NCBI GenBank assembly: GCA_050012075.1
Contig: JBEKHW010000002.1
Coordinates: 47,518 to 111,517 of the forward strand
DNA from: Candidatus Omnitrophota bacterium
GTDB taxonomy: Bacteria; Omnitrophota; Gorgyraeia; Gygaellales; Profunditerraquicolaceae
Reading direction: 5' to 3'
DNA length: 64,000 nucleotides
Shown: positions 23 through 40,129 of the stretch, in pieces
Layout: the number at the start of each line of letters is the position of its first letter
How positions within the stretch are numbered: the stretch's first letter is position 1
Notes under the pieces: model-generated
What the model was told of the DNA's origin: nothing
The model's database searches: none
Seen by the model: only the letters and a program-made list of their open reading frames with translations
Position numbers and translations under genes: made by a program

Positions 23-1417
23 ATGAGCATTAGCATTGGGCATTCCAATATAGGAATATTTCTGTCGCCTTCCCCTCGCGGTCCAGGGATGATTAAGTCT
101 CCTCCTCTCGACATCGCAAATTTAGTTGCCATATTGAGAAATAATGAGTCGTTCGATGTTAAGCTTATTGATTCAAGGGCCCATGTTTTAAATGAGGATT
201 CGTTTTGGGAAAGAAAAGGGATTAATTTAAGCATATTTAATGATTTCAAAAGGTGTTTCGACCATCTTCTCGTAAAGCAAGACCCGTTAATAAGTTATAC
301 CTCCATAAAAATATTATCAGAAGTAAAGCCCGAGCATATGGAATTTATGATCTTCTCTGTTGCGGTTCTTGAGCAGTTTTCTTTGCAGTATCTTATTTCA
401 TCTCTTTGTATCGCCAGGCAGATGAAGGAAAAGTATCCGGGGATAAAAATAGTTTTCTTCGGTAATTGCCCTAAGAAGCACGCGAGAAAAATTATGGGAA
501 ATTTCAGTTTCCTTGATGCTTTCCTAGAAGATGGGAATGAGTATTCTGCCTTGCAATATATTAAGAATTATAAGAGGTGCTCTCCTATAGACGGGATTAC
601 ATATAGAGAAAAAAACAGGCTAATTTATTCACGTAAAGGCAGGAAGTTAGACTTGGATAAATATCCCGTTCCAGAATTTGCCTTGTTCGATCTTAAAAAA
701 TATAAATGCAATGGGAAACTGGTATTGCCGTATGAGATAAGCAGGGGGTGCATTAATGACTGTTTTTTCTGTTATTATATTCATAAAGGCAAGATGGCCT
801 ACAAAAACATAGATAAAGTCACGGATGAATTGAAATATTTATCGCGCAAATACGATACCCAATATTTCCACTTTATGGATGCGGAAATAAATTTTGACGA
901 TGATTATCTGGGGAAGCTGTGTGGAGTCTTTAATAAAAGGTTGCCTCATATACGATGGAGTGCCTTAGCAATACCCAATATAAATAATGAGCTGCTAGTA
1001 AAAATGAGGAAAGCGGGCTGCGTTCAGTTAAGGTGGGGTGTTGAATATGCATCAGAAAGGATGCTTAAGATTATTGGTAAGAAAACAAGTGTGAAAGAGA
1101 TAAAAGAGGTTCTTAAAAATGCCCATCATCTCGGTATCTATAATTATATAACATTGCTTACTGGGCTGGGGGTTGAAAGAAAAAAGGATATTGAGGATAC
1201 CAAGGGGTTTATCAAAGGGATGAGTCCGTATATTGACTCTATTAAAGAATGCGTTTGGGGGGAACTGGGGCATTTCAGTATCTTGCGCTTGGATAACCTA
1301 TTAAACAATAAACAGGGAAAGGAAATTACCCAGCGTCAAAAATACGGGCCCACTTTAAGGGGTTGCGATATAACCTCAGAAGATATAATAGATGTTATAA
1401 CGAGATTTGGCAGCTGA
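23..1417 (+). CDS. B12-binding-domain radical SAM protein (class B-like)
   Basis: CxxxCxxC motif CINDCFFC in the middle of the protein. N-terminal region resembles a cobalamin-binding Rossmann-like domain. The frame is open to the window edge, so the true start may lie upstream. Confidence 0.65.
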   Translation: MSISIGHSNIGIFLSPSPRGPGMIKSPPLDIANLVAILRNNESFDVKLIDSRAHVLNEDSFWERKGINLSIFNDFKRCFDHLLVKQDPLISYTSIKILSEVKPEHMEFMIFSVAVLEQFSLQYLISSLCIARQMKEKYPGIKIVFFGNCPKKHARKIMGNFSFLDAFLEDGNEYSALQYIKNYKRCSPIDGITYREKNRLIYSRKGRKLDLDKYPVPEFALFDLKKYKCNGKLVLPYEISRGCINDCFFCYYIHKGKMAYKNIDKVTDELKYLSRKYDTQYFHFMDAEINFDDDYLGKLCGVFNKRLPHIRWSALAIPNINNELLVKMRKAGCVQLRWGVEYASERMLKIIGKKTSVKEIKEVLKNAHHLGIYNYITLLTGLGVERKKDIEDTKGFIKGMSPYIDSIKECVWGELGHFSILRLDNLLNNKQGKEITQRQKYGPTLRGCDITSEDIIDVITRFGS

Positions 1418-1441
1418 CCATTGTTTTTTGGGTCAGTTTTT
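1414..1441 (+). terminator. putative intrinsic terminator overlapping the stop codon
   Basis: Stem CTGACC/GGTCAG (1414-1419 and 1431-1436) with a T-rich loop, followed by TTTTT. Confidence 0.35.
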
Positions 1442-1600
1442 GCAGGCAGTCGTAGATTTCTTTGACTTTTTCCATTCTGCAGGAGAGGTGGCTTTTCCAC
1501 TCTGGCTTTCCCAAGTCAACTTCATATTTCAGCTTTAATCTTAATGCGCAAGGTTCTCTTAAAACCAGATTCTTTTGAATGGACTGCTATTCAAATTTCC
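1440..1600 (-). pseudogene. degenerate duplicated 3'-terminal fragment of the adjacent SPASM radical SAM gene
   Basis: 1516-1600 aligns at about 75% identity with 1715-1800, and 1440-1515 aligns with 1620-1714. The minus-strand translation of the copy carries several stop codons. Confidence 0.5.
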
Positions 1601-2694
1601 TATATTGACTTTTGTTCGTAATATTTCCGTAATTCTTCGCAAGCATTCTCTATTTTCAGATATTCTTTCGTGTGGTCGCAAGAGCGGCATTTTATAAATG
1701 GCGGCCTACACGAATCAAGGTCATATTTTAATTTTAATCTTAATGCATGCGCCTTTTTCGAAAACCAGATATTTTTAAGCGAATCGTTTTTCAAATTGCC
1801 GGCTTTTAATTCGGTATTTCGATGGCAGAATATAATGCTCCCATCACTTGCGACTAGAACACGAAGCCAGGCGGCGAAGCATGATTTTAACTGAGGGTCA
1901 TTGTTCTCCTTGATGCCGATGAATTCTGTAATCTCAGCTTTTACTCTATATTTGCTACAGCTTACATTTTTTATTATTTTCTTGAACGCGTTGAATTCTT
2001 TTTCGCGCAGGAGTAGTTTTTTTGTATATGGCGTCGGACCCAATGCTACAAATCTTAAGCGCGGAATATTAAGAGAATCAGCAAATTCTAACATTGCTTC
2101 TAAATAGCTGTAGTTATTCCTGGTGATTACACAGTTTAACATTATATCTGGTTTGCCTTCCGTTATGCGCAAGGCAGAAAATAATTTTAGATTTCTAATC
2201 AGGTTGTGGTACGCTTTCTTACTGGAAGGGTGACATAGTTTAGAATAAACGTTTTCATCGTGCGCGCATATGTTAACCAGCAGCTTATCCGCTTTTGCAA
2301 AGCTTAAACGTAAGAAATCTTTGTCAAAAGTAAGATTGCTATTTAGCTGTAAAAAGAATCCCTTTTCTTTTATAAAATCAATTATTTCTGTGATTTTCGG
2401 ATGTAGGGAAATTTCTCCTTCTGCGGAAAGCGTAATTGAATTTATTGAAGATAGCTCTTTTACGTCTTTAATTATCTTTTTGATGCAAGATAAAGGCAGT
2501 ATATTACGCGGCGGGTTATTATTAATCAGGGGAGAATGAACCCAACAGAATTCGCATTTTAGATTGCATATCGAATTTATCTTTATGGTGATAGCTATCG
2601 GCCCCTTGGATACTCTATCAAGAAATATATCCATCAAGGGAAGAGATCGTTTGTGATTAGGCATATCAAGTAAGATTTTTGATTTATTGACCAT
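1600..2694 (-). CDS. radical SAM protein with C-terminal SPASM-like Cys-rich domain
   Basis: N-terminal CNLKCEFC (CxxxCxxC). C-terminal extra cysteines (CFAAW, FCHRN, CRPPFIKCRSCDH) are typical of SPASM/twitch auxiliary clusters. Confidence 0.7.
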   Translation of the reverse strand: MVNKSKILLDMPNHKRSLPLMDIFLDRVSKGPIAITIKINSICNLKCEFCWVHSPLINNNPPRNILPLSCIKKIIKDVKELSSINSITLSAEGEISLHPKITEIIDFIKEKGFFLQLNSNLTFDKDFLRLSFAKADKLLVNICAHDENVYSKLCHPSSKKAYHNLIRNLKLFSALRITEGKPDIMLNCVITRNNYSYLEAMLEFADSLNIPRLRFVALGPTPYTKKLLLREKEFNAFKKIIKNVSCSKYRVKAEITEFIGIKENNDPQLKSCFAAWLRVLVASDGSIIFCHRNTELKAGNLKNDSLKNIWFSKKAHALRLKLKYDLDSCRPPFIKCRSCDHTKEYLKIENACEELRKYYEQKSI

Positions 2695-2715
2695 GTTTTA
2701 TTATATAATAAACCT

Positions 2716-3675
2716 ATGCTTTTTCAAGGGTATTACCCAAAATCTTTTTGCCGGGAATACGTAGAAGTGATGGGCGCATCTACGCAGCTGTCCATGTTTA
2801 TGGCGACTGTGCTCGGAATAAAGCCGTTAATGGATGACTGGGTGCCGGTAGCCAAGCTCAATGAGTTTAAGAAGGTTTGCAGGAAATACGGCTTGAAGAT
2901 AAGGGAAGACGTTATTTTTAAAAGCATTCCAAAAGAGAATCTTTCGCCTTCTATCCTGGGCAGGGAGTGCATCACTACTACCAGCGCTTTCGCAAGCCCG
3001 TTAAATTCCGGTAGCAGAGGACAGGTCCATTTATTCATATCCAAAAGTAATTCTCTTTTAAGGAAAGGGATGTGGTATCCTGTTATCATCAAAAACAGGG
3101 TAATCGTTCAGCCGCGGATGGACAGCCTGAGATACGGATATGTTTTGGGGTATCCTGACTGCTGCATCAAATTCTTCCGGAAATATAACAACTGGATAAA
3201 ATACAGCCATCTTTATGAAATATACAGAAATACGCATAATAAACCCTCTTTTTTGTGCAATCCGTTTCTTAAAGATACGACCTTTTCATATATATATCAT
3301 ATGCCCTGCGGCTATGATTGCACGCAAACTATAAGATTAGCCGGCAAGTTAAGGAAAGCGATAAAGAGAAGGGAACCGGCATACGTGCAATTGGCTGATA
3401 AGCATCTTAAGATGCCTTTCTTAGTTTTTTACGAAAGGAAATTTTATTGTTTTTCAGGAAAGATTAACGGCGGGCTCCTGAGCTATGATAAAGTATATTT
3501 TCCTTCACCGGATAAAGCGCAGGATGCATACGGAAAGCTCCTGGCAGAAGGCGACCGTTTGGAGCTAGAAGGCAGAAAGTTGATCGTCTACCGTAAAAAC
3601 AAAAAGATTAAGATCGCAGATATTCCTCTTAATAATTTTGCCCCTGCGTACCCATTTTTGATACAGTTCTCTTAA
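2716..3675 (+). CDS. hypothetical Cys-rich protein, divergently transcribed from the SPASM rSAM gene
   Basis: 319-aa ORF, 22 nt from the divergent rSAM start. Carries GYPDCC and HMPCGYDC cysteine motifs. No family recognised. Confidence 0.45.
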   Translation: MLFQGYYPKSFCREYVEVMGASTQLSMFMATVLGIKPLMDDWVPVAKLNEFKKVCRKYGLKIREDVIFKSIPKENLSPSILGRECITTTSAFASPLNSGSRGQVHLFISKSNSLLRKGMWYPVIIKNRVIVQPRMDSLRYGYVLGYPDCCIKFFRKYNNWIKYSHLYEIYRNTHNKPSFLCNPFLKDTTFSYIYHMPCGYDCTQTIRLAGKLRKAIKRREPAYVQLADKHLKMPFLVFYERKFYCFSGKINGGLLSYDKVYFPSPDKAQDAYGKLLAEGDRLELEGRKLIVYRKNKKIKIADIPLNNFAPAYPFLIQFS

Positions 3676-3680
3676 AGACC

Positions 3681-5771
3681 ATGAAGATTTTACATATTAG
3701 TTGCAATAAATACCATCCCTGCCTATGGCGGATGATTAAGGTGCAGGCAAGGAATAACGATGTTTCTTTATTCCTGCTGAATTTTGGAGAATATAACAGT
3801 ACCTCGATAGGCAAAAAATATAATGAAGATGGTGTCCAATTTGTGGAAATAGATACGAAAAAAGCAGTGATTTATAATCAGGATAGCTCTTTAGAGGATG
3901 TTTTCCGTGATTTATTAAGAATATATAATCCCGATGTCATCCATATCCATGTTTTTTCAGGAATCAACCTTTTTTCTCTACTGGCTGTATCCTGTAGCCT
4001 GGAAATAAAGAAAGCGCTGACTTTGCATGACCATTCTCTTTTCTGTATCCGTGGCACAATGCATGATGGCCGCGGTGTATGCAGTATGGATTCATTTATG
4101 CAATGCTCATGCAGCACCAATCAGTATCATGCGAAGGCGAAAGACAGATCACCGAAGGAATTCAATCTTTATCGGGAAGAGCTATCCAGAAGGGTAGTTA
4201 ATATGTGCGATAAAATAATCTGTTGTTCTGATGCGCAAAAAGAAAAACTCGAGCAGCTATTCGGAAAAAATGAAAAATTTGTTACTCTTTACTACGGCGT
4301 AGGGTTGCCTAAAGTTCATAAGCGAATAAAGAAAAAGTCAGGTATAGCTACCTTCGGCTTTCTTGGTAATTTAGCTTCTTTAAAGGGTATAGAGATATTA
4401 GAAGAGGCGGTGCCTAAGCTATCGCAGCATAAATTCAGGTTGCTGATGGCTATACACTATCGAGATGATGCTCCTGACAAAAATGAATACTTAAAAAGGC
4501 TGCAGAAGTGTAATAACATAGAGTTGCTGCATAATGTTGAGTATAACGAGCTTTATACCAGGTTTTTCAGCCAAATCGACTGGTTAATTATTCCTTCTCT
4601 TTGGGAGGAGACCGGGCCGATGACCCTTTTTGAGGCATTTTTTTATAAAGTGCCGGTTATAATTTCCAATCGTAAAAGTATGGTTGAGAAGATCCGGGGT
4701 AACAGGAACTCCAGGGTCTTCAAAAATACCGATATGTTGGTAAGAATAATGAAGGGGATCATCTCGCGCAGAATCAGGAAAAAGATGCCCGATTCATTCA
4801 AGGCAAAGGGCATCAAGACCTATGCGAATGAAATCATAGCTTTGTATAGAGAGCTTCTTGTAAAAGAAGAAAAAACCCTTGTCCTGAAGACCGGTTATTT
4901 ATGTAATAATAACTGTATTTTCTGCGTAACCGGAGACAATACCCCGCGGGAATTCGTGAATTTCAGCTTCCTGGTAAAAACGCTGGAGAAATACAGGGGG
5001 CTTTATGAGAGGGTTACGCTTACCGGGGGCGAGCCGCTTTCACGGAAAGATATTCTTAATATCCTGGAATTCTGTTATAGGCTCGGATATAAGATCACCC
5101 TGCAGACCAATGCCAGGCAATTTGCCGATAAGGATTTCTGCCGGAGCATAAAATATTTAAACTTGGATATCATCACGCACCTGGAAAGCTACAAACCGAA
5201 GATACACGATGTAATTACCAGGGTACAAGGGAGTTTTTATGAGACGGTAAGCGCCATAGTTAATTTAAGGCAATATTGCGCGAGCATATCGGTAAAGATA
5301 ATGATGACAAGCTTGAATTACAGGCATATTCCAACTACCGCGCGCTGGCTAAAGAAATTAAAAGTGGATGAGGTATGGTTTGTTTACCTGACTCCCTACG
5401 GCCACGCGTTTACTTATTTTGATTTGATAACCCCGCATTATTCCGAAGTAAAGCCGTATATACGCCAGGCCGTGGAGCTGCTCGGAGGAAATAAAGGTCC
5501 CAAGATAGCCGTAGAGGGAGTCCCTTTTTGTTGCGTAAACGGGGGAATAAGAAAACTTATTCTTGATAAAAAGCAGGCGGACCAATATTGTAGATGCGGC
5601 GTATATCCTGCCGCTTCCGGAGAAAGCCGGTACTATTGCTTTCCGGAGAGGGAGAAGCAGAAACAGAAGTTTGGGCGGTGTAAGCTTTGTAAATTCGACA
5701 GCATATGCGAAGGCGTTTACGCAAGGTATGTAGAAAAAATGGGGGAGAGGGAATTTAATCCGGTGTTTTGA
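3681..5771 (+). CDS. fusion protein: N-terminal GT4-like glycosyltransferase plus C-terminal radical SAM/SPASM-like domain
   Basis: Residues about 1-400 have the GT-B/GT4 signature EETGPMTLFEAFFYKVPVI. Residues about 400-696 carry CNNNCIFC (CxxxCxxC), a GGEPL SAM-binding motif and a C-terminal Cys cluster (CCVNGG, CRCG, CKLCKFDSIC). Confidence 0.7.
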   Translation: MKILHISCNKYHPCLWRMIKVQARNNDVSLFLLNFGEYNSTSIGKKYNEDGVQFVEIDTKKAVIYNQDSSLEDVFRDLLRIYNPDVIHIHVFSGINLFSLLAVSCSLEIKKALTLHDHSLFCIRGTMHDGRGVCSMDSFMQCSCSTNQYHAKAKDRSPKEFNLYREELSRRVVNMCDKIICCSDAQKEKLEQLFGKNEKFVTLYYGVGLPKVHKRIKKKSGIATFGFLGNLASLKGIEILEEAVPKLSQHKFRLLMAIHYRDDAPDKNEYLKRLQKCNNIELLHNVEYNELYTRFFSQIDWLIIPSLWEETGPMTLFEAFFYKVPVIISNRKSMVEKIRGNRNSRVFKNTDMLVRIMKGIISRRIRKKMPDSFKAKGIKTYANEIIALYRELLVKEEKTLVLKTGYLCNNNCIFCVTGDNTPREFVNFSFLVKTLEKYRGLYERVTLTGGEPLSRKDILNILEFCYRLGYKITLQTNARQFADKDFCRSIKYLNLDIITHLESYKPKIHDVITRVQGSFYETVSAIVNLRQYCASISVKIMMTSLNYRHIPTTARWLKKLKVDEVWFVYLTPYGHAFTYFDLITPHYSEVKPYIRQAVELLGGNKGPKIAVEGVPFCCVNGGIRKLILDKKQADQYCRCGVYPAASGESRYYCFPEREKQKQKFGRCKLCKFDSICEGVYARYVEKMGEREFNPVF

Positions 5772-6466: not shown

Positions 6467-6850
6467 ATGAACAGAAAAGGTTTTACGCTAGTTGAAATCA
6501 TGATTGTCGTTGCGATTATCGCTCTGTTGGCAGCTATTGCCATACCCAATCTTCTTTCAGCAAGAAGGACCGCGAATGAATCTGCGGCAAAGGCATCGAT
6601 ACGTAGCATTTCTACCGCAGCTGAAACATACGCTACTTCTCATAGCGGTGCGTATCCTACTGATGTAACTGCCTTGGCAGAGTTTATTACTACTGCTCCT
6701 AGCTATTGCGGCCAGGCCGTACAAGGTTATAACTATACTTGTACATTAAGTTCAGGCGGATATACTATTGTTGCAGCGCCGGTTACTCCTGGCACGACAG
6801 GAAATATAACCTGGACAGCTACTACAGGTGCAGCACTCACTCCACTGTAA
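6467..6850 (+). CDS. prepilin-type N-terminal cleavage/methylation domain pilin
   Basis: MNRKGFTLVEIMIVVAIIALLAAIAIPN is a classic G|FTLxE class III signal. RBS GGGGGG upstream. Confidence 0.8.
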   Translation: MNRKGFTLVEIMIVVAIIALLAAIAIPNLLSARRTANESAAKASIRSISTAAETYATSHSGAYPTDVTALAEFITTAPSYCGQAVQGYNYTCTLSSGGYTIVAAPVTPGTTGNITWTATTGAALTPL

Positions 6851-6871
6851 CAAGATATTTTGTACTTTAGT

Positions 6872-6908
6872 AAAAAAGGGGAAAGAGGTTCATTCTTTCC
6901 CCTTTTTG
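6872..6908 (+). terminator. rho-independent terminator
   Basis: Perfect 12-bp stem AAAGGGGAAAGA/TCTTTCCCCTTT with a 7-nt loop, then TTG. Confidence 0.6.
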
Positions 6909-6916
6909 TTTAACCT

Positions 6917-8893
6917 ATGATACTTAAAAAAAGAACATATTTTCTTATTTTTATTTTGATCTTTTTCTCAGTGCTGTCCGTGTATTCCAATACCCTGCGT
7001 AATCCTTTTATATGGGATGATAACGCGATTATTGTGCATAACAGCCTGATCCAGGACTGGCATCTATTGGGAAAGGCGTTTACGAGTGATCTCTTCTATG
7101 GCGTAGCTTCCGGCTCAAATTTTTACCGGCCGCTACAGACAATTTCTTATATGTCGGATTATTACTTCTGGGGCCTTAAGCCGTTAGGGTATCATATTAC
7201 TAATATACTTCTGCAGGCCGCACTTTCTTTTTTGGTCTTTATTTTTCTTTTTATGCTGTCTGGCAGAGCGGAAATCTCTTTTTTTAGTGCGCTTCTTTTT
7301 GCGGTAAACCCCCTGCACACAGAATCAGTGACTTACCTTTCCGGACGCGCCGAGATGCTGATGGGGATTTTCTTGCTGACATCATTTATCTTTTTTGTCA
7401 AGGGGCAAAATTGCCGGAAGAATTACCGTTTGCCGCTTTATTTATTATCAGTGGTAGCGTTCATTCTTGGTTTATTATCGAAAGAACTGGCAGTGGTTTT
7501 TCCGCTGGCCATACTTGCCTATCTTTTTTATTTTAGGAAATCTAACAAGGCAGCGATATCCTGGAAAACATCTCCATTTTTTGTTATTTCACTGGTTTAC
7601 GTTTTATTAAGGCTCACCTTGTTAAAGTTCCCTACTTTTAGGCCACCGACTTTGGCAGGCGTCCCGTTTCTTTTTAGGATGTCGGTTTTATTCAAAGCGC
7701 TGTTTATGCAGGCCAAGCTCCTGATTTTGCCGGTTAATCTGCATATGTCTTATCAATTAGTAATGCCGACGACTTTTTTAGGGATTTTCTTATCCTGGTT
7801 TATTTCAGGTGTGGTTGTAGTTTTTGCTGCATATATTTTACGCAATAAAAAGAAAAATGCCCTCTTCTGTTTTTTATTTTCCTGGTATCTGATTTTTCTT
7901 CTTCCGCAGTCAGGGATTTTGCCTATCAATGCCTTTTTTGCTGAACACTTTCTATATTTGTCTTCGATAAGTTTTCTTACAGGAGTTTTATTAATTTTAC
8001 AACGGTATTTAAAGAAACCATTATTTTTGTTTTCTTTTGTTTGTCTTTTTGCCGCTTACGGCGTCCTTACTTACGCCCGTAATCTTGAATGGTCTAGCCC
8101 CCTTGCATTCTTCCAGGGGATAGTGAAACTATCGCCTGGAAGCTTTCAGGGATACAATAACCTGGGTTTAGAATACGAAAAGAACGGGGATTATCAAAAA
8201 GCGATATCCTGTTACAAAAGGGCGTTACAGATAATGCCTGAACTTTTGGATGCGCACTTTAACCTGGCTAACCTCTATTTTAAGACCGGAAAATTAAAAG
8301 AAGCGCTGGATGAATACTCTGTTATTGAAAAGACTCACCCTGGAGATAAATCAGGGCAGGTGCAGAATAATATCGGTAATGTATTGGAGGCTCAAGGGTT
8401 ACCGCAGGCGGCCATAAAAAGATACAAGATAGCCTTGCAACTGGATAAAAACCTCTATTATGCCCATTTTAATCTCGCGCGTATCTATATGGGGCAGGGA
8501 AAAACCGGATCATCTGTTGAAGAGATAGTTGTTTCTCTGGGGTTACAGGTAGATAATGCAGAGACAGACGGGGTTATCATCCGGCAGATAATTACCCGTT
8601 TTCTTGAAGAGAAAAAAATGTTAAATTCCGCGGATATTTTTTATAATAATCTGGGAGCAAAATTAGCAGGAAGCGGAATTTTTTATGCGGCAGCTTCTGC
8701 TTTTAAGAGGGCGCTGGAGATCGAGCCGGCTTATGAAGATGCGCATTTTAATCTCGCTCTTAGTTACCTGAAGATGGGGATGAGGAATAGGGCAGTTTCG
8801 CAATTAAACTCTTTGCTCAAGATAGATCCGCAGCATCATCGCGCCAGGAGCCTTTTACTGGAGATAAAGAAAAATGTTAGCCGCAGTCAATAA
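6917..8893 (+). CDS. TMTC-like GT-C membrane glycosyltransferase with C-terminal TPR repeats
   Basis: N-terminal polytopic domain with FIWDD in the first loop, a DD motif typical of GT-C. C-terminal multiple TPR repeats (LGLEYEKNGDYQKAISCYKRAL...). Confidence 0.55.
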   Translation: MILKKRTYFLIFILIFFSVLSVYSNTLRNPFIWDDNAIIVHNSLIQDWHLLGKAFTSDLFYGVASGSNFYRPLQTISYMSDYYFWGLKPLGYHITNILLQAALSFLVFIFLFMLSGRAEISFFSALLFAVNPLHTESVTYLSGRAEMLMGIFLLTSFIFFVKGQNCRKNYRLPLYLLSVVAFILGLLSKELAVVFPLAILAYLFYFRKSNKAAISWKTSPFFVISLVYVLLRLTLLKFPTFRPPTLAGVPFLFRMSVLFKALFMQAKLLILPVNLHMSYQLVMPTTFLGIFLSWFISGVVVVFAAYILRNKKKNALFCFLFSWYLIFLLPQSGILPINAFFAEHFLYLSSISFLTGVLLILQRYLKKPLFLFSFVCLFAAYGVLTYARNLEWSSPLAFFQGIVKLSPGSFQGYNNLGLEYEKNGDYQKAISCYKRALQIMPELLDAHFNLANLYFKTGKLKEALDEYSVIEKTHPGDKSGQVQNNIGNVLEAQGLPQAAIKRYKIALQLDKNLYYAHFNLARIYMGQGKTGSSVEEIVVSLGLQVDNAETDGVIIRQIITRFLEEKKMLNSADIFYNNLGAKLAGSGIFYAAASAFKRALEIEPAYEDAHFNLALSYLKMGMRNRAVSQLNSLLKIDPQHHRARSLLLEIKKNVSRSQ

Positions 8894-8914
8894 TTTTTGT
8901 TATAATTCTTACCT

Positions 8915-9364
8915 ATGAAATCGAACAATAAAAACAAAGCTTTTACGTTAGTAGAGATTATGACGGTAATGGCAATCGTGGCGCTGTTAGTCTCTATGGC
9001 AGTCATAGAAACAGCTAAATTCAGAAGACAAGCAAATGAATCTACCTGTCAGGCTAACCTCAAGGCGATTGCTTCCGGTTTTGAGGTGTACGCGGCCCGT
9101 AACGCCCTGTCATATGCGCCTGAAGAACAGACTAACCTGCAGTTCTTAGTGGACAGCGGTTGTCTTAACCAGGACCTTACCGCAATGCCGCAGCTGGGTA
9201 ATTTCCGTTACACAGTAGCCGAAGTCGGCCCCGCTGGTTATGATATCAGGGCAATCGCGCTAAATTCAGCTTTGGCAGCGCATAATTATCAGGTTATTAC
9301 CGGCGGCACATTAAAAAGGACCGACAGTCCAGACCCTTCCGATTCCGATTTTAAGACTTTTTAA
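8915..9364 (+). CDS. prepilin-type pilin (Ala at -1)
   Basis: MKSNNKNKAFTLVEIMTVMAIVALLVSMA: FTLVE with Glu at +5. Confidence 0.7.
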   Translation: MKSNNKNKAFTLVEIMTVMAIVALLVSMAVIETAKFRRQANESTCQANLKAIASGFEVYAARNALSYAPEEQTNLQFLVDSGCLNQDLTAMPQLGNFRYTVAEVGPAGYDIRAIALNSALAAHNYQVITGGTLKRTDSPDPSDSDFKTF

Positions 9365-9387
9365 ACATAGTGTTATAGGTAGGAAAT

Positions 9388-19034: not shown

Positions 19035-19988
19035 GTGTTTGTCGACCAGGTAAAGATAAAGGTTAAAGCAGGAGACGGCGGCCGCGGCTGCCGTAGTTTT
19101 TACCGTGATAAATACATGCGTAACGGTATTCCTGACGGCGGAGACGGAGGTAAAGGCGCGGATATTATCGTAAAGGCCGATCGTAACCTCTATACGCTTC
19201 TGGATTTTAAATATAACAGGCATTTTACCGGCCGCCACGGTGCTCACGGTTCAGGCAATAATAGAAAAGGTAAGGAATCCCCCAGCGTAGTTATACGCGT
19301 TCCTATTGGCACCGTAGTGAAAGAGGTGCCGAGCCAGTGTATACTCCGGGATTTAAAAGAGGATGGCGAGGAGTTCGTAGTTGCAGCAGGCGGCAGGGGT
19401 GGATTAGGTAACCGTAAAGGAAGGGAATCTACTCTCGGTGAGCCGGGCCAGGACAAGGAACTGGTTTTAGACCTTAAGCTTATCGCAGAGGCAGGGGTTA
19501 TCGGGTTTCCGAATGCGGGTAAATCAACCTTTATCAGCGCTGTTTCTAATGCCCATCCAAAAGTAGCGGCTTACCCCTTTACAACCAAGATTCCGGTATT
19601 AGGGGTTGTGCACGGGCACGGTAAAAGTTTTGTGATCGCGGATATACCAGGGCTGATAGAGGGATCTTCGCGTGGCAAGGGATTAGGGGATAAGTTTTTA
19701 AGGCATATTGAACGCACAAAGATCCTTATTCATATAGTGGATATGTCAGGGATGGAAGGCCGCGATCCGCTGGATGATTATAAGATTATAAGCCAGGAAT
19801 TAAAGAATTACAGTAAAGAGGTAGCGAGTAAAAAACGGATTATTGCCGCGAATAAAATGGATTTGGAAGGTGCGCAAGAAAATCTGAAAGAGTTCAAAAG
19901 AGCGGTTAAAAAAACAGTTTATCCTATTTCAGCGTTAAACAGGGAAGGCCTGGAGGAGATAATTGAAGCAGTTGCAAAAAGAATATAA
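19035..19988 (+). CDS. obg: GTPase Obg
   Basis: GTG start. FVDQVKIKVKAGDGGRG Obg fold plus G1-G4 motifs (GFPNAGKST, DIPG, NKMD). Confidence 0.9.
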   Translation: MFVDQVKIKVKAGDGGRGCRSFYRDKYMRNGIPDGGDGGKGADIIVKADRNLYTLLDFKYNRHFTGRHGAHGSGNNRKGKESPSVVIRVPIGTVVKEVPSQCILRDLKEDGEEFVVAAGGRGGLGNRKGRESTLGEPGQDKELVLDLKLIAEAGVIGFPNAGKSTFISAVSNAHPKVAAYPFTTKIPVLGVVHGHGKSFVIADIPGLIEGSSRGKGLGDKFLRHIERTKILIHIVDMSGMEGRDPLDDYKIISQELKNYSKEVASKKRIIAANKMDLEGAQENLKEFKRAVKKTVYPISALNREGLEEIIEAVAKRI

Positions 19989-21030
19989 GAGGATTGTCGT
20001 CAAGATAGGCTCAAGCCTCATGTATCAGGAAGAAGGCGGGTTTAGCCGTGCTAAAATCGGCGAAATTGTTTCCCAGGTTGCGGAATTGAGCTCTGCGGGC
20101 AAGGAGATAATATTGGTTTCTTCCGGTGCCATTGCGCTTGGTATGTCCATTTTAAAACTGCATACCCGTCCTAAGGAATTATCGGTATTACAGGCAGCGG
20201 CAGCAATAGGCCAGCATGAGCTCATGGATATTTATCGCGATTTCTTTAAGGAAAAAGGGCTTAACTGCGCGCAGTTGCTTTTGACCTGGGAAGATTTTGA
20301 CAATCGCAGGCGTTATCTAAACGCTAAAAATACTATTTCTACCCTGCTTAAATTGAAAAGTATACCTGTCGTTAATGAGAACGATACCGTATCTATCGAG
20401 GAGATTAAATTCGGCGATAATGACCAGCTTTCTGCGTTAGTAGCTACGCTTATCAACGCCGATTTATTAATTATACTTTCCGATGTAGATGGTCTCTTGG
20501 ACAGCGATAAGAAAGTTGTGTCTATGGTAGAGAAGATAAGTCCCCAGTTGAAAGCGCTCGCCTGCCCTACCAGCAAAAAAACCTGCGTGGGCGGGATGGT
20601 TACAAAAATAAAGGCAGCAGAGATCGCGGTAAGCGCTGCTATACCGTGTATCATAGCTAACGGTAGGAAAAAGAACGTCATTAAGTCGTGCGTCTTAGAG
20701 GCGCACAATACCGGCACCCTTTTCTTGCCAAAGATTACTTCGCTAACAGCAAGAAAACGCTGGATAGGGTTTGGCGCCAAGGCCAAAGGAAATATTATTG
20801 TTGATGAAGGCGCCAAGAAAGCGGTCTTTAATAACAAAAGCTTGCTTTCTGTAGGAGTGGCGGCATTACGGGGCGATTTTAAGAGTGGAGATATCGTCAG
20901 TATCTGTGATAAGGAGTGTGTTGAGTTTGCGCGGGGTAAAGTGGCGGTTAGCGCCAAACAATTAGAAAGTGTTAAAGGCAGGCGTTTTGAGAAAGAGATC
21001 GTGCATCGTGATAATATCGTAGTGCTATGA
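19963..21030 (+). CDS. proB: glutamate 5-kinase
   Basis: IVVKIGSS N-terminus, amino-acid kinase fold and C-terminal PUA-like domain. Overlaps the obg 3' end. Confidence 0.85.
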   Translation: MKQLQKEYKRIVVKIGSSLMYQEEGGFSRAKIGEIVSQVAELSSAGKEIILVSSGAIALGMSILKLHTRPKELSVLQAAAAIGQHELMDIYRDFFKEKGLNCAQLLLTWEDFDNRRRYLNAKNTISTLLKLKSIPVVNENDTVSIEEIKFGDNDQLSALVATLINADLLIILSDVDGLLDSDKKVVSMVEKISPQLKALACPTSKKTCVGGMVTKIKAAEIAVSAAIPCIIANGRKKNVIKSCVLEAHNTGTLFLPKITSLTARKRWIGFGAKAKGNIIVDEGAKKAVFNNKSLLSVGVAALRGDFKSGDIVSICDKECVEFARGKVAVSAKQLESVKGRRFEKEIVHRDNIVVL

Positions 21031-22292
21031 ACCTAAAAGAGGAACTTACAAATTTAGCTAAAGGCGCACAAGAGGTAGCCCGACAGTTAGTGAACCTGCC
21101 TTCACAGACCAAAAATAAGGTTCTTGAGGAGATGGCAGGAGCGCTTATCGCTAAGAAAAAAAAGATTCTGAATGCAAATGCCAGGGACCTGCGCAAGGCA
21201 AAGACAGATAAGTTATCCGCGGCTTTTATCGATAGGCTTACTCTTTCCGAGAAAAGGCTCAAAGAGATGTCTGATTCGTTATTGAAAATTGCAGAGCTCG
21301 AGGATCCTGTGGGGAAGTTGATAAAAGAATGGAAGGCGGAAAGCGGCCTTTCCATAAACAAAGTGCGCACTCCTATAGGGGTTCTGTTTATTATCTATGA
21401 ATCAAGGCCCAACGTTACCAGCGACTGTATCGGCTTGTGTTTTAAGGCGGGTAATAGCGTTATATTGCGCGGAGGTAGCGAATCCCTGAATTCAAACCTC
21501 GCAATATTTGGCGTGTTAAAGGAAGTGCTCAGGAAGAATAATATACCGGAAAATGCGGTGAGTATGGTTTCCACAACCGAGCGCCGGGCAGTAGATATAC
21601 TGCTTAAATTAAACGACTATATCGATCTGGTTATGCCGCGCGGAGGCCAAGGCCTGATTAAGCGTGTGGCCGAGCTCTCGCGCATACCCGTTATTAAACA
21701 CTACAAAGGGATATGCCACGTATATGTTGATGAGTGGGCAGATTTGAATATGGCAGAGAAGATTTGTTTTAATGCCAAGGTAGAGCGTCCAGGCGTATGT
21801 AACGCCATGGAAAGCATGCTTGTGCATAAAGACGCGGCTGTGCGTTTCCTGCCCGGTATGCTGAAGAAATTCCTGGAGGCAGGCGTAGAAATACGCGGCT
21901 GCGACATTACCATAAAGATCAGCCGCGGTGCAAAGGGCGTAGTTAAGGCAAAAGAAGAAGATTATTCTACCGAATACCTGGATTTGATCCTTTCGGTAAA
22001 AGTTGTCGAGAATATCGATGAGGCGATAAGGCATATCAATCATTACGGCTCACATCACTCTGATAGCATTGTTACCGATGATAAGGAGAGCGCCGCAAGA
22101 TTTCTTAAGGAAGTTGATTCCGCCTGCGTTTACGTTAATGCCTCAACCCGTTTTACCGACGGTAATCAATTCGGCATGGGAGCTGAGATAGGCATATCCA
22201 CGGATAAACTGCATGCCCGGGGGCCTATGGCGCTTGAAGAACTGACGACTTATAAATACCAGATCCATGGTAGTGGGCAAATAAGAACATAG
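21027..22292 (+). CDS. proA: gamma-glutamyl phosphate reductase
   Basis: ALDH-fold protein with ATGA overlap to proB. Typical ProA length and motifs. Confidence 0.85.
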   Translation: MNLKEELTNLAKGAQEVARQLVNLPSQTKNKVLEEMAGALIAKKKKILNANARDLRKAKTDKLSAAFIDRLTLSEKRLKEMSDSLLKIAELEDPVGKLIKEWKAESGLSINKVRTPIGVLFIIYESRPNVTSDCIGLCFKAGNSVILRGGSESLNSNLAIFGVLKEVLRKNNIPENAVSMVSTTERRAVDILLKLNDYIDLVMPRGGQGLIKRVAELSRIPVIKHYKGICHVYVDEWADLNMAEKICFNAKVERPGVCNAMESMLVHKDAAVRFLPGMLKKFLEAGVEIRGCDITIKISRGAKGVVKAKEEDYSTEYLDLILSVKVVENIDEAIRHINHYGSHHSDSIVTDDKESAARFLKEVDSACVYVNASTRFTDGNQFGMGAEIGISTDKLHARGPMALEELTTYKYQIHGSGQIRT

Positions 22293-31620: not shown

Positions 31621-32666
31621 TCCTCATAACCGGTTCATGCGGCCTTATTGGTTCGCAAACTGCGGGTTTTTTTGCCGAGAAAGGGTTTGACATAGCCGGA
31701 ATAGATAACGATATGCGAAAGTACTTTTTCGGTAAAGATGGCAGTATCGTCGGTAATAAAAAACGGCTGCTAAAAAAATATAAGAACTATAAACATTTTG
31801 ATGCCGATATAAGAGATGACGGCAGGATAGATAAGATATTCAGGAAATTTTCAAAAGATATACTTTTGATAGTGCATACCGCAGCTCAACCTTCCCATGA
31901 CTGGGCTGCAAGAGAGCCGAAGACGGATTTTAGCGTAAATGCCTGCGCTACTTTAATAATGCTTGAGGCGTTCAGGAAGCATTGCCCCAAGGCAGCATTT
32001 ATATTTACCTCGACGAACAAGGTGTACGGTGACCTGCCGAACACTCTGCCTCTGGTAGAACTGGAGAAACGCTATGAATTGCCGCAGGGCCACAGGTATT
32101 ATAGAGGCATAGATGAGTCAATGAGTGTTGATAACTGTTTGCACAGTCTTTTCGGCGCATCAAAACTGGCTGCCGATATCCTGGCTCAGGAATACGGAAG
32201 GTATTTTGGCCTCTCTACCGCCATCTTCCGGGGCGGCTGCCTTACAGGTCCGGCGCATTCCGGTGTCGAGCTTCATGGATTTCTTTCATATCTTGTAAAA
32301 TGCTGCGTTAGCGGGAAAATTTATAAAATATACGGCTACAAGGGCAAGCAGGTCAGGGATAATATCCATTCATATGACCTGGTGAATGCCTTTTATCATT
32401 TCTTTAAGGCGCCAAGGACCGGGGAAGTATACAATATAGGTGGCGGCAGATTCGCCAATGTTTCTATATTAGAGGCAATTGATATATGCCAAAGGATCTC
32501 CGGAAAAAAGTTCAGCTATGAATACACGGATAAAAACAGGGTAGGCGACCATATCTGGTGGATAAGCGATGTCTCCAAATTCAAATCGCATTATCCCCAG
32601 TGGCAGTATAAGTACGGTATCGAAGATACTATGCGCCAAATATACGATGCCCAAAATGAAGCCTAA
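31611..32666 (+). CDS. NAD-dependent epimerase/dehydratase (CDP-paratose 2-epimerase-like)
   Basis: [13 protein letters not shown]ossmann fold and [11 protein letters not shown] (YxxxK). About 350 aa with an extended N-terminal insertion, as in CDP-tyvelose/paratose epimerases. Confidence 0.6.
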
Positions 32667-34482
32667 TTACATATTAGGAATATCGGCTTTTTACCATGAT
32701 AGCGCAGCCGCGTTGATTAAGGATGGAGAAATAATGGCTGCTGTCCAGGAAGAACGCTTTAGCCGCAGGAAACATGATCCAGGGTTTCCTGTTAATGCGG
32801 TAAACTGGTGCCTGAAAGAAAACGCCATTACCGCGCAGGACCTTGATTACGTAGTATTCTACGATAAACCCTTCATAAAATTAGAAAGAATATTGGAAAC
32901 CGCTATGCGTTTTGCCCCTTCAGGAATAACCCAATTCATGCAATCAGTGCCTGTATGGTTAAAGGAGAAAATATGGGTCAGGGATATCATCTCAAAGAGT
33001 TTAGGTTACAAAGGAGAGATTCTTTTCTGTGAGCATCATGAATCTCATGCGGCCTCGGCATTTTATCCTTCTCCTTTTGAAGAGGCGGCGTTTTTGACTA
33101 TAGACGGCGTGGGGGAATGGGATACAGCCAGTTTTGGAATAGGTAAAGGCAGGGAACTCAAAATCCAGCATTCTTTGAGATTCCCGCACTCTCTTGGCCT
33201 GCTTTATTCAGCGTTCACATATTATACCGGTTTCAAAGTGAATTCCGGGGAATATAAATTAATGGGGCTTGCGCCATTTGGTGAGCCGGTTTATAAGGAT
33301 TTGATACTGAACGAACTGTTGGATTTAAAAGAAGATGGTTCTTTCCGGCTGAATATGAAATATTTTGGATTCTGCAATGGCCTCAGGATGACAAATCTGC
33401 GGTTTGATAAACTTTTTGGCACAAAGCCTAGAAAGCCGGAAACAAAAATCAGGCAGATAGATATGGATTTGGCCAGCTCTATCCAGCAGGTAACCGAAGA
33501 GATAATGTTACGGATCGCCCGCCATGTATATAAAGTTACCGGAAAAAACAAACTTTGTTTAGCAGGCGGCGTAGCCTTAAACTGTGTCGCAAACGGCAGG
33601 ATTTTACGCGAAGGGCCGTTTGAGGATATCTGGATACAGCCTGCCAGCGGAGATGCGGGAGGGGCATTGGGCGCGGCCCTGGCAATATGGCACAGGTATC
33701 TTGGCAAGGAGAGAAAGATTGCTTCAGCCGGGGATTCATTAAAAGGTTCATTTCTTGGCCCGGCGTTCACCGATGACGAGATAGAGGAATTCCTGAAAAA
33801 AGAGAAGGTTCCTTATGAACATATTGAAAGAGAAAGGCTGGTGGATTCTACTGCGGAGTTGATTGAAAAGCAGCATGTAATCGGCTGGTTTCAGGGCCGC
33901 ATGGAATTCGGCCCGCGCGCATTGGGGGCCCGTAGTATCATAGGAGATGCCAGGAACCCGAAAATGCAATCCAGGATGAACCTTAAGATTAAATTCCGGG
34001 AATCCTTTCGGCCTTTTGCCCCGACTGTTTTAAGAGAGCATACCTCAGAGTGGTTTGCGTTAGATAGAGCAAGCCCCTATATGCTGCTTACTGCCCCGGT
34101 GAAAAAAGAAAAAAGGCTGGAAGAGCAAAAAGAGAAAGAGGGGCCCAGAGGCCTGGATAAGTTAAAGATTTTCCGTTCGCCTATACCAGCAGTTACCCAT
34201 GTAGATTATTCCGCAAGGATACAGACCATAGAGCGCCGGGATAACGGGATTTACTATGATCTGGTCAGCGCTTTTTATAGAAGGACCGGCTGCCCCGTAA
34301 TTATTAATACTTCTTTTAATATACGAGGGGAGCCGATTGTCTGTACCCCGGAAGAGGCGTTCCGTTGTTTTATGCGTACGGATATGGATTATTTGGTTAT
34401 AGGCTCATTCCTGCTTGATAAAAGTAAGCAGAGGCTTTTAAATGAGAAAATCAGGCCGCTGGAATACCAGGAGCTGGATTGA
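32647..34482 (+). CDS. carbamoyltransferase (NodU/CmcH family)
   Basis: [21 protein letters not shown]ae1/YgjD-like N-terminal domain plus a C-terminal carbamoyltransferase domain. Start chosen at an internal ATG overlapping the upstream stop. Confidence 0.8.
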
Positions 34483-34715: not shown

Positions 34716-34874
34716 ATGGGCAAAATTTATCTGCTGAAGGAATTATGGGATTTTATGAAAATCAGAAAAAGATACTGGCTATTGCCGATTATTATTATTC
34801 TGACAATCTTTTCCATATTGATAATTTTTACCCAATCATCGGCAGTTGCGCCTTTTATATATACCCTATTCTAA
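34716..34874 (+). CDS. DUF5989-like small membrane protein (SxtK-like), absent from the ORF track
   Basis: 52 aa: MGKIYLLKELWDFMKIRKRYWLLPIIIILTIFSILIIFTQSSAVAPFIYTLF. GGAGGG RBS 5 nt upstream. The C-terminal ...SAVAPFIYTLF matches the recalled consensus of small proteins found downstream of carbamoyltransferases. Confidence 0.55.
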   Translation: MGKIYLLKELWDFMKIRKRYWLLPIIIILTIFSILIIFTQSSAVAPFIYTLF

Positions 34875-34875
34875 A

Positions 34876-36141
34876 ATGCCAAATAAATCTGAAATTATTT
34901 CTGGATTCTGTGACAGGATTGTTTATTGCGCGATAATCCTGCTTCCTTTTGTGGCGAGTTTTTCCTCTGCCGGGGTGGACGCCATGATCGGCATATCGGG
35001 ATTTTTCTTTTTGCTTAAAAAAATATTAAGGAAAGACCATTCTCCGGTAAATATCCCCATCTTAGGCGCTTTCATATGCTTAATAGTAATTTCCCTTGTC
35101 TCATTCTTTAATACCATAAATTTGAAATCAAGCATACATGGTATAGAGAAGCTGTTGAAGTATGGTATTTTATTTGTAACAGTGGCTGATTCGCTAAAAG
35201 ACAAAAAGCATCTCAAATGGATTTTGTTTGCTTTGATTTCAGGATTGGTTATGGCTTCCCTGGACGGTTTTTATTCGATGGTATTCGGAAAGGACCTATT
35301 CAGGCAGATGCCGCCTAATTATGTAATAGGGTTGATTCGTATCAGGGCCGCTTTTCCCGATGCCAATCTATTTGCAGGATACCTGGCTTTATTTTCTCCG
35401 GTATTGTTAGGAATTACACTTTATCATGTCAAGGGCCGCTTAAAAGGCATTATGCTTCTGGTTTCAGTCCTGGTTCTGGTCAACCTTATCTTTACCTTGT
35501 CGCGCAGTGCTATTTTCGGCGTATGGCTGGCCTTATTATTTATGGGGATACTGAAAAGGGATAAAGTAATTATTTTTTTGCTTATACTTTCGCTTTTAAT
35601 AACCCCTTTTATTATGCCGCGCCAGATTAAGGGATGGATAAACAGCTCGAATTCAATCTGGGAAGTTCTTTTAAATGGCGATAGTCAAAGCGCAGGGAGG
35701 TTGCCTCTTTTTAAGGTCGCGCTGGAAATGATTAAGTCCCATCCGTTTATCGGAGTAGGTGTCAATACCTTCAGCATTAACTTTAAAATCTATAAAGCCA
35801 TTGGTAAAATAGATTTTCCTTATCCAGGGGACTGGTATGCCCATAATATCTACCTGCACCTGCCTGCTGAAATTGGACTCGTTGGCCTTGCGATATTTTT
35901 ATATATGTTATTCCTGATTTTTAAGACATGGGTAAAGTTTAACCGAGAGACGCAAGACGCTTTCCTGAAAATTTCAGGCATGGGTATCATTGCCGGGATA
36001 ATCGCTTTTCTTGTTAATGGCTTAACCGAAACAAACCTTTATAATCCAAAAGTCGCCACCTTATTATTTTTTATGATCGGTTTATTCTTCGGTGTGAATA
36101 AAATCGCCAAGGGGGTAGTTTATGAAAAAAAACAAAACTAA
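34876..36141 (+). CDS. O-antigen ligase / O-antigen polymerase-like membrane protein (Wzy_C family)
   Basis: Polytopic protein with TLSRSAIFGVWLALL and a large periplasmic loop. Start chosen at the ATG 2 nt after the small ORF's stop. Confidence 0.55.
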   Translation: MPNKSEIISGFCDRIVYCAIILLPFVASFSSAGVDAMIGISGFFFLLKKILRKDHSPVNIPILGAFICLIVISLVSFFNTINLKSSIHGIEKLLKYGILFVTVADSLKDKKHLKWILFALISGLVMASLDGFYSMVFGKDLFRQMPPNYVIGLIRIRAAFPDANLFAGYLALFSPVLLGITLYHVKGRLKGIMLLVSVLVLVNLIFTLSRSAIFGVWLALLFMGILKRDKVIIFLLILSLLITPFIMPRQIKGWINSSNSIWEVLLNGDSQSAGRLPLFKVALEMIKSHPFIGVGVNTFSINFKIYKAIGKIDFPYPGDWYAHNIYLHLPAEIGLVGLAIFLYMLFLIFKTWVKFNRETQDAFLKISGMGIIAGIIAFLVNGLTETNLYNPKVATLLFFMIGLFFGVNKIAKGVVYEKKQN

Positions 36142-39389: not shown

Positions 39390-40129
39390 TGAGAGTGCAT
39401 TTTCTGGGAACGATGGGCTGGTATGATACGGAATTGGGCAATACCCTTTGTGTGCTCGTAGAAACTCCACGCGAATACGTTATTTTTGACGCTGGTAACG
39501 GCTTCGCAAAAGCCGACTCGTATTTAAGGAAAGATAAGCCGGTTTATTTATTCTTAAGCCATTTTCATCTTGATCATATAATAGGGCTGCACGCGCTCAA
39601 TAAATTTGACCTTCCGCAAGGCATCGATGTATTCGGGCCATCCGGGATAAAGAAGATGTTCAATCTTATTATTAATTCCCCGTATTCTAAGCCCCTAGCC
39701 AAATTAAAAACCAGGGTAAGGATAAAAGAGCTTTCTGGCAGGTTAAAACTTCCTATTGATATACAATTTAAGGAGTTAATCCATACCACTGTATGTTTCG
39801 GTTATCGGTTATCGTATAAAGGCAAAGTAGTGGCGTTTTGCACTGATACCGGCTTATGCAATAACCTCGCTTCATTGGCAAGGAATGCGGATTTGCTGAT
39901 CCTGGAATCGTCGTTGCGGCCGGGGGAACCTGACAGGGGCTGGCCGCACCTTAACCCGCAGCAGGCCGCCACAGTGGCAAGGAAGGGGTTTGCCGGGAAA
40001 TTGGCATTGGTTCATTTTGATGCCGCAGATTATTCGCGGGAAAGCGATATACAATCAGCGGGGACTGCAGCGCGGAAGATTTTTAAGAACACCATAACAG
40101 CAAGAGATGGCAAGTGTATAGAAATATGA
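39386..40129 (+). CDS. MBL-fold metallo-hydrolase
   Basis: FLSHFHLDHIIG (HxHxDH) motif. Confidence 0.6.
   Translation: MMRVHFLGTMGWYDTELGNTLCVLVETPREYVIFDAGNGFAKADSYLRKDKPVYLFLSHFHLDHIIGLHALNKFDLPQGIDVFGPSGIKKMFNLIINSPYSKPLAKLKTRVRIKELSGRLKLPIDIQFKELIHTTVCFGYRLSYKGKVVAFCTDTGLCNNLASLARNADLLILESSLRPGEPDRGWPHLNPQQAATVARKGFAGKLALVHFDAADYSRESDIQSAGTAARKIFKNTITARDGKCIEI

Follow-up and report, generated by a model that had tools for sequence, protein, structure and literature searches.

A conserved fusion of a GT4-type glycosyltransferase to a radical SAM enzyme in Omnitrophota and its possible role in glycan tailoring

The gene at positions 3681-5771 of the 64,000-nt stretch of Omnitrophota DNA analyzed here (the window) encodes a single polypeptide in which a GT4-type glycosyltransferase (GT) is joined to a radical S-adenosylmethionine (SAM) enzyme, and the joined gene is conserved among relatives. 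The original prediction, made from the letters of the sequence, had described such a fusion and had taken it to imply that glycosyl transfer and a radical reaction are obligatorily coupled on one substrate. We observe the two domains with their motifs, conservation of the fusion, a compact predicted fold, and a neighborhood of carbohydrate enzymes. We propose that the protein is a bifunctional glycan-tailoring enzyme whose GT4-type transferase and SPASM/Twitch-clade radical SAM halves share a substrate in a surface glycan, a proposal to which we give about an even chance of being right. Nucleotide positions refer to the whole window unless a locus label (L followed by a number) is given, and residue positions refer to the fusion protein.

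Results

The fusion is one reading frame and a conserved gene

By the list of open reading frames (ORFs) and the translation, window 3681-5771 on the plus strand is one 696-aa frame with zero internal stops (Table 1). The two-domain polypeptide read earlier from the sequence held up, as both halves scored above their Pfam cut-offs and a scan with hidden Markov models recovered a glycosyltransferase as well as a radical SAM domain. The motifs quoted at that time all lie where they had been placed: EETGPMTLFE at residues 309-318 (nt 4605-4634; E310-x7-E318), CNNNCIFC at residues 408-415 (nt 4902-4925), GGEPL at residues 449-453 (nt 5025-5039), and C-terminal cysteines at positions 617, 618, 637, 639, 653, 667, 670, and 676. 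The database gene call for this protein (P0001) is 676 aa long and begins at V21, i.e., 20 codons late; because the sequence MKILHIS is conserved among homologues, we take the ATG at 3681 to be the true start.

Homologues were searched among 5.8 billion proteins and the matches grouped at 90% identity. About 30 of these clusters are full-length, 38 to 61% identical to the query over 95 to 100% of its length, and all of them carry both sets of Pfam domains. Their sources are NCBI, ENA, JGI, and Logan assemblies; wherever a sequence is named, it belongs to a metagenome-assembled genome (MAG) of Omnitrophica/Omnitrophota. When one genome per GTDB species was scanned, the full-length fusion gene was found in about 15 species, so that orthologues do keep the fusion. 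The closed chromosome of Candidatus Velamenicoccus archaeovorus LiM (NZ_CP019384.1) contains an intact fusion frame of 702 aa (L018 10001-12106).

The junction between the two halves (about nt 4810-4880) is free of frameshift. In the family alignment, which consists of 29 full-length GT4-radical SAM homologues, Y381 and Y389 never vary and L402 and G405 hardly do, and conserved residues thus span the site at which an assembly artefact had been considered. AlphaFold2 (AF2), run with this alignment as input, predicted one compact body for the two-domain protein (mean predicted local distance difference test score (pLDDT) 90.5, predicted template modeling score (pTM) 0.89). By DSSP analysis of the model, the last GT element is followed by just one helix (378-394) before the radical SAM domain begins its first strand (399-403).

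It is extremely improbable that two adjacent genes were joined here by a frameshift error or a chimeric assembly. The late database gene call is the only oddity that could be counted in favor of such an artefact, whereas clusters with the same architecture come from four data sources and a closed genome has it as well. Because of the roughly 30 clusters from independent assemblies, the closed genome, the conservation across the junction, and the confident two-domain model, we conclude from these comparisons that the fusion is a true, evolutionarily conserved gene, with misassembly and frameshift excluded as far as is possible without reads.

The N-terminal half is a GT4-type glycosyltransferase

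Pfam Glyco_transf_4 matched residues 75-207 (5.4e-10, 40.0 bits against a cut-off of 28.5) and Glycos_transf_1 matched residues 214-376 (1.6e-12, 47.8 bits against a cut-off of 26.4), while Glyco_trans_1_4 also matched the donor domain. Foldseek related the GT half to GlgA, BshA, HepE, and PglA at a probability of 1.00 (E 1e-10 to 1e-13), and the donor domain aligns with that of P. abyssi glycogen synthase. Both Pfam halves above cut-off, the GT-B fold, and the EX7E motif, all of them marks of GT4-type enzymes, are present. Throughout the family alignment, K235, E310, E318, and the PSxWEETGPM block are invariant. The fusion thus shares the two-Rossmann fold, the EX7E motif, and the lysine of the KG pair with retaining GT-B enzymes of the GT4/GT5 kind (GlgA, BshA, HepE, PglA, and PimA-like), but it differs from typical members in a four-cysteine (Cys4) insertion in the N-domain, in a nonconserved GRxxxKG arginine, and in the attached radical SAM enzyme.

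The Cys4 insertion, C122-x11-C134-x7-C142-x-C144, is found also in the nearest GTs that stand alone (P0031-P0036); GT4 proteins of a Firmicutes clade annotated PF20706 keep only C122 and C144. A Pfam family search with this segment gave noise-level matches only. Judging by the sequences, the insertion is probably a metal site, either Zn or Fe-S.

The C-terminal half is a radical SAM enzyme with a probable partial-SPASM extension

Pfam Radical_SAM matched residues 405-557 (2.2e-14, 54.4 bits against a cut-off of 29.5). The CX3CX2C and GGEP motifs are invariant in the 29 homologues, and the features of the radical SAM superfamily (PF04055) were found, the fold included. Against solved structures, the profile of the domain matched BlsE (1.7e-18), SkfB (2.3e-16), SuiB (2.2e-12), GDGT-MAS (1.5e-11), MoaA (2.4e-11), and PqqE (1.7e-10); a second listing of solved relatives gave, as unlabeled figures, SkfB 21.5, BlsE 21.5, GDGT-MAS 21.0, SuiB 20.4, viperin 20.0, and anSME 19.5. 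Because of these matches to solved relatives, we assign the radical SAM half to the SPASM/Twitch clade. As judged from the models, the radical SAM fold is unable to discriminate among peptide, sugar, and lipid substrates. BlsE, the cytosylglucuronate decarboxylase of the blasticidin S pathway (PDB 7vob), differs from the fusion in that it is a stand-alone enzyme without a glycosyltransferase; the two are about 15% identical, and the sequence match is confined to the core barrel (profile positions 4-177).

Downstream of the barrel, only four cysteines are conserved in the 29 fusions, C617 and C667-x2-C670-x5-C676, and the same four are kept in Myxococcota homologues of the radical SAM module. 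The structure models show a beta-hairpin (residues 638-652) followed by helices, resembling Twitch/SPASM extensions. Twitch-type domains (BtrN, MoaA, and SkfB-like) have one auxiliary Fe-S cluster, which a hairpin and helix extension beyond the barrel holds in place. Pfam SPASM gave zero matches with the whole protein at E<=0.1 and with the last 105 residues at E<=10, and the seven-cysteine SPASM signature (PF13186/TIGR04085; CX9-15GX4C ... CX2CX5CX3C ... C), to which two auxiliary clusters bind, is absent, there being no cysteine at +4 or beyond after CX2CX5C. The earlier description of this half as "SPASM-like" is therefore borne out for C617 and the CX2CX5C cluster, which fit one auxiliary cluster, but not for a complete SPASM domain. 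On the strength of this conservation pattern, C617, C667, C670, and C676 probably bind one auxiliary [4Fe-4S] cluster in a Twitch/partial-SPASM domain.

A relationship to anti-phage viperin (pVip in PADLOC) was considered and rejected: the match is to the generic core only (residues 408-548, 48 bits), and the neighboring genes have no defense-system matches.

The acceptor domain and the radical SAM domain form a persistent unit

A HMMER search of 1.84 billion representatives (50% identity) at E<=1e-30 returned 2,346 proteins; among the top 150, the full-length GT4-radical SAM architecture is found in only about 12. The remaining top-150 matches cover only profile positions ~395-695, often in two to six stretches, i.e., as tandem radical SAM modules. 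The GT4-radical SAM family is small and almost confined to Omnitrophota. Among 62 relatives of the module, the Pfam partner domains are GT4 (4), GT2 (3), GT9 (1), Glyco_transf_7C (1), APH kinase (2), HAD (2), GFO/IDH/MocA (1), and B12-binding (1). Larger architectures also occur, namely a 1060-aa radical SAM-GT4-radical SAM protein and a 1164-aa GT4-radical SAM-radical SAM/SPASM-GT2 protein.

Paralogues of ~480-540 aa (P0058, P0060, P0068, and L041 10001-11449; also L002 12115-13548) combine the radical SAM domain with the N-terminal half of the GT; a clean deletion has removed the donor-binding half (residues ~205-380). In L041, a stand-alone GT4 from this clade comes after such a truncated paralogue, and in L002 it lies directly 3' of a full fusion. 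Since the truncated paralogues retain the acceptor domain together with the radical SAM domain, this pair appears from the sequences to be the persistent unit, which provides the best available argument that both halves act on the same molecule.

Beyond Omnitrophota, the radical SAM module is widespread in Myxococcota (L027, L028-L087) at 30 to 35% identity and with the same C...CX2CX5C pattern, and it also occurs in Patescibacteria and DPANN archaea. An Archangium sp. MAG (L027 9983-13181) has tandem module genes fused to AhpC/TSA redoxin and class I methyltransferase domains. Full-length fusions were also seen on contigs L010, L012, L013, L014, L015, and L022/L023, whose bins are labeled Methanosarcinales, Planctomycetia, Nanoarchaeota, or "archaeon". 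Because the gene order of L012 matches that of the Velamenicoccus locus, these look like mis-binned or mislabeled Omnitrophota DNA, which would be plausible for epibionts of methanogens.

Table 1. Coordinates of the fusion gene, its parts, and the adjacent genes in the window
Feature	Position (nt)	Strand	Basis and remarks
Complete GT4-radical SAM fusion gene	3681..5771	+	696 aa plus stop; ORF translation, Pfam, homologues, AF2
GT-B N-terminal (acceptor-side) Rossmann domain, residues 1-207	3681..4301	+	Pfam Glyco_transf_4, Foldseek
Four-cysteine insertion C122, C134, C142, C144 in the GT N-domain	4044..4112	+	Invariant in 29 fusion proteins
GT-B C-terminal (nucleotide-sugar donor) domain, residues 214-376	4320..4808	+	Pfam; holds K235 and E310-x7-E318 (nt 4608-4634)
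Single connecting helix, residues 378-394 (domain junction)	4812..4862	+	DSSP on AF2 model; Y381 and Y389 invariant
Radical SAM core barrel	4875..5435	+	CX3CX2C nt 4902-4925 (C408, C412, C415); GGEP nt 5025-5036 (residues 449-452)
C-terminal auxiliary-cluster domain (putative)	5436..5768	+	C617 (nt 5529-5531); C667-x2-C670-x5-C676 (nt 5679-5708); predicted beta-hairpin 638-652
B12-dependent-type radical SAM protein, 464 aa	23..1417	+	Pfam Radical_SAM; best NCBIfam matches are B12-radical SAM families, all below cut-off
Radical SAM/SPASM protein, 364 aa	1600..2694	-	Pfam Radical_SAM and SPASM; NCBIfam below threshold only
DUF483-like Cys/His-rich protein, 319 aa	2716..3675	+	Pfam DUF483, 27 bits against a cut-off of 25; 5-nt gap to the fusion ATG
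Small TPR-like protein, 153 aa	5788..6249	+	16-nt gap after the fusion; GGAGG ribosome-binding site; weak TPR matches

Fusion genes lie among radical SAM and carbohydrate enzyme genes

The 6.3 kb of the source contig upstream of the window (L005) encode a radical SAM protein, a U32 protein, a 260-aa protein, a DegT sugar aminotransferase, and B12-type radical SAM proteins. Three B12-type genes stand in a row, the last of them being window 23-1417, and L005 1-7677 together with window 23-2694 holds five radical SAM genes in a row or nearby. Elsewhere, family members have up to seven further radical SAM genes in their vicinity, and the neighbors include DegT, YdjC, carbamoyltransferase, polysaccharide deacetylase, GT4/GT28, PMT_2 (GT-C) membrane transferases, AsnB-like, and U32 proteins. 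Some of these neighbors are themselves fusions (GT28C-radical SAM-SPASM and DegT-radical SAM-SPASM). The 260-aa partner adjoins U32 in four loci, and judged by eye, the pair may resemble the UbiU/UbiV O2-independent hydroxylases.

Clustering of the ORFs from 20 loci revealed three recurrent gene orders. The window shows the order DUF483-like gene, fusion, (U32-like gene), small TPR protein gene; the others are fusion, U32, a gene for a protein of ~250 aa, and radical SAM, and a gene for a 543-aa polytopic membrane protein followed by the fusion. The DUF483-like gene lies directly 5' of the fusion in seven loci, where its orthologues are 52 to 75% identical and thus more conserved than the fusion, and the small TPR-like gene is kept 3' of the fusion in seven loci. 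The DUF483-like protein has many conserved Cys and His residues and the motif GYPxCC...HMPCxYxC, and it belongs to a family of at least 188 clusters, which far exceeds that of the fusion in size. No solved relative was found for it at E<=10 and no NCBIfam match, and a literature search on DUF483 returned only DUF483x families.

The gene caller used on the source contig missed this 319-aa gene (L005 8976-9935), calling only its last 96 codons and a 59-aa antisense ORF; because of the orthologues at 52 to 75% identity, we consider the full ORF to be real. The start codons of the DUF483-like gene and the divergent radical SAM/SPASM gene are separated by an AT-rich stretch of 21 nt (TTTTATTATATAATAAACCT, window 2694-2716); one of the starts must be wrongly assigned, or else both genes use the same very compact promoter region in opposite directions.

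Downstream of the small TPR gene, window 6467-22000 carries a cluster resembling type IV pilus/type II secretion system (T2SS) genes. It encodes N_methyl pilins (6467-6850 and 8915-9364), a 658-aa TPR protein, PilM (12430-13443), a weak PilO match (14059-14643), and a secretin (15019-16755); the gene between PilM and PilO has no match, and a UbiA prenyltransferase gene (10974-11819) lies on the strand opposite to the pilus genes. Among the 20 fusion loci, pilin or type IV pilus genes adjoin the fusion in this contig only. As this adjacency is not conserved, the idea that the enzyme glycosylates pilin was not adopted.

A second glycan-type cluster, of lower G+C content (0.35-0.41 in places), occupies window 32569-55354. 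It comprises genes for a carbamoyltransferase (32569-34482), a Wzy_C/O-antigen-ligase-like protein (34846-36141), a methyltransferase (40114-41337), a thiamine pyrophosphate enzyme (43414-45222), a DegT protein (45296-46606), and a GT87 protein (54107-55354). It also holds another 696-aa ORF (47318-49408), which was examined as a possible relative of the fusion and found to be unrelated (BLASTP E 2.6, zero Pfam matches), the equal length being a coincidence.

Discussion

The carbohydrate role is favored here because the neighbors and fusion partners of the family are largely carbohydrate enzymes. We infer that both halves are catalytic, that they act on one substrate, in what order they do so, what kind of radical chemistry is used, and that a surface glycan results. 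While a heavily tailored surface glycoconjugate is being assembled, the GT half would, on the cytoplasmic side, transfer a sugar from a nucleotide sugar to an acceptor held by its N-domain. The radical SAM half would cleave SAM reductively at the [4Fe-4S] site formed by C408, C412, and C415, and the resulting 5'-deoxyadenosyl radical would take a hydrogen from the same sugar or from the acceptor. The outcome may be dehydrogenation, epimerization, or deoxygenation/decarboxylation, as in sugar-acting radical SAM enzymes, with the auxiliary cluster handling the second electron as an electron conduit. The fusion would then pass a short-lived intermediate directly between the active sites. As for the obligate coupling on one substrate that was originally postulated, it can reasonably be inferred from the very short linker, the high pTM, and the truncated paralogues that combine the acceptor half with the radical SAM domain. 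A conceptual analogue is Elp3, whose radical SAM domain is part of one polypeptide with a GNAT acetyltransferase so that both act on one substrate.

A bolder version of this scheme, which we think improbable, would make the protein a machine that transfers a sugar and then tailors it by an undescribed carbohydrate radical reaction, for example, a C-C or ether cross-link between sugar and acceptor. The Cys4 site would be a third metal or Fe-S center feeding electrons to the radical SAM half, and the gene would have been recruited into a conserved DUF483-TPR operon as part of an Omnitrophota-specific, O2-independent glycan-tailoring system with U32 hydroxylase-like proteins and many radical SAM enzymes.

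Several observations weigh against assigning the fusion to glycan tailoring by two active halves. While the earlier GT4 assignment stands at the level of Pfam and fold, the arginine of the GRxxxKG motif is not conserved: alignment to P. abyssi glycogen synthase and the family alignments place it within G229-N230-L-x3-K235-G236, where its position is taken by N230 and is variable in the family, while K235-G236 is kept. The usual glycine-rich N-terminal loop was not seen when the translation and alignments were read by eye. With the arginine lost and this loop unseen, donor binding or catalysis by the GT half may be atypical. Genomic context also counts on this side, as the homologue in L001 has no glycan or radical SAM neighbors, and the DUF483-like and TPR genes are adjacent or overlapping without any fusion between them in L088 8001-9514, L089 8001-9442, and L090 8001-9469. 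This pair is found mostly in Omnitrophota, with some bins labeled Vulcanimicrobiota or Eremiobacterota, and in only a subset of genomes does the GT4-radical SAM gene sit between its members. Given that the pair is contiguous where the fusion is absent, the fusion gene sits inside a conserved gene pair, and because the pair also occurs without it, the adjacency may not reflect a shared function. Finally, full-text searches of the literature found no description of a GT-radical SAM fusion; a preprint on giant proteins of Omnitrophota noted only the co-occurrence of GT1 and radical SAM Pfam domains in such proteins.

The atypical donor site could mean that the GT half is a noncatalytic module that binds a nucleotide sugar or acceptor, leaving all chemistry to the radical SAM half, which would work on a nucleotide or nucleotide sugar much as viperin, DesII, or BlsE does. 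The truncated paralogues, in which the radical SAM domain needs the N-half of the GT alone, point the same way, but K235, E310, E318, and PSxWEETGPM are completely conserved over 38 to 61% identity, which suggests that the donor site is under selection. Stand-alone GTs from this clade, presumably active enzymes, lack the arginine as well, and we regard a purely binding role as unlikely. A similarly doubtful alternative is a peptide or protein maturase, in which the radical SAM half cross-links or epimerizes a ribosomal peptide or else a protein, for instance a pilin, in the manner of SkfB and SuiB, while the GT half glycosylates the same peptide. Of all NCBIfam families, HxsC (TIGR03977) and HxsC4 (NF038332), radical SAM proteins of the His-Xaa-Ser system and putative peptide maturases, matched the radical SAM half best (the two top scores being 117 and 95 bits, residues ~384-626), a further point against glycan tailoring, and SkfB and SuiB are among its fold neighbors. 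Neighboring radical SAM proteins weakly match RiPP (ribosomally synthesized, post-translationally modified peptide) methyltransferase and SPASM maturase families, pilin genes lie just downstream in the window, and a T2SSE ATPase is encoded upstream in L001. The NCBIfam scores, however, are far below the cut-offs (116.8 against 500 bits and 94.8 against 267.9 bits), so the radical SAM half is not a member of either family, and the fusion loci have no HxsA/B/D context or other Hxs-type neighbors. SkfB (PDB 6efn) and SuiB (PDB 5v1q), Twitch/SPASM RiPP maturases, differ in having a peptide-recognition domain at the N terminus and peptides as substrates, and SuiB carries a full SPASM motif, which the fusion lacks; Pfam found no PqqD/RRE domain in the fusion or in the 62 module relatives. 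No precursor gene was found at the loci: among 163 intergenic small ORFs from the 20 loci, none is conserved beyond near-identical locus pairs and none occurs in three or more loci. The pilin adjacency, confined to this contig, and the carbohydrate enzymes among neighbors and fusion partners also speak against a maturase.

Tailoring of membrane lipids, in which the enzyme glycosylates a lipid and C-C bonds in the lipid chains are made or altered by the radical SAM half, as by the tetraether synthase GDGT-MAS/Tes, seems very unlikely to us. GT4 enzymes commonly make glycolipids, the window contains the UbiA gene, and Omnitrophota were reported to have homologues of the Mss/Hbs lipid radical SAM enzymes (bioRxiv 10.1101/2023.10.20.563219). 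The similarity to GDGT-MAS, however, is to the generic core only (profile positions 10-116), UbiA is not conserved near other family members, and the conserved neighborhood showed no other lipid-synthesis genes.

Both kinds of domain in the proposed glycan-tailoring enzyme are well known; what is uncharacterized is their conserved fusion, the putative single-cluster partial-SPASM extension, the Cys4-bearing GT, and the radical-SAM-rich glycan clusters of Omnitrophota. Few radical SAM enzymes have sugars as substrates (BtrN, DesII, AprD4, BlsE, and similar), and new chemistry came with the discovery of each. To our knowledge, no characterized member of this group is covalently fused to a glycosyltransferase. 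The conserved fusion offers a rare built-in clue to the substrate, namely whatever the GT acceptor domain binds, and the paralogues with only the N-half of the GT in particular offer a way to find out what an unexplored radical SAM subfamily acts on. The family comprises ~12 clusters at 50% identity, few enough for expression work, and includes the enrichment-cultured Candidatus Velamenicoccus archaeovorus, so the question is experimentally approachable. Members of the uncultured phylum Omnitrophota are ultrasmall anaerobes, some of them epibiotic or predatory, and in their genomes, the fusion marks large glycan clusters that are rich in radical SAM enzymes.

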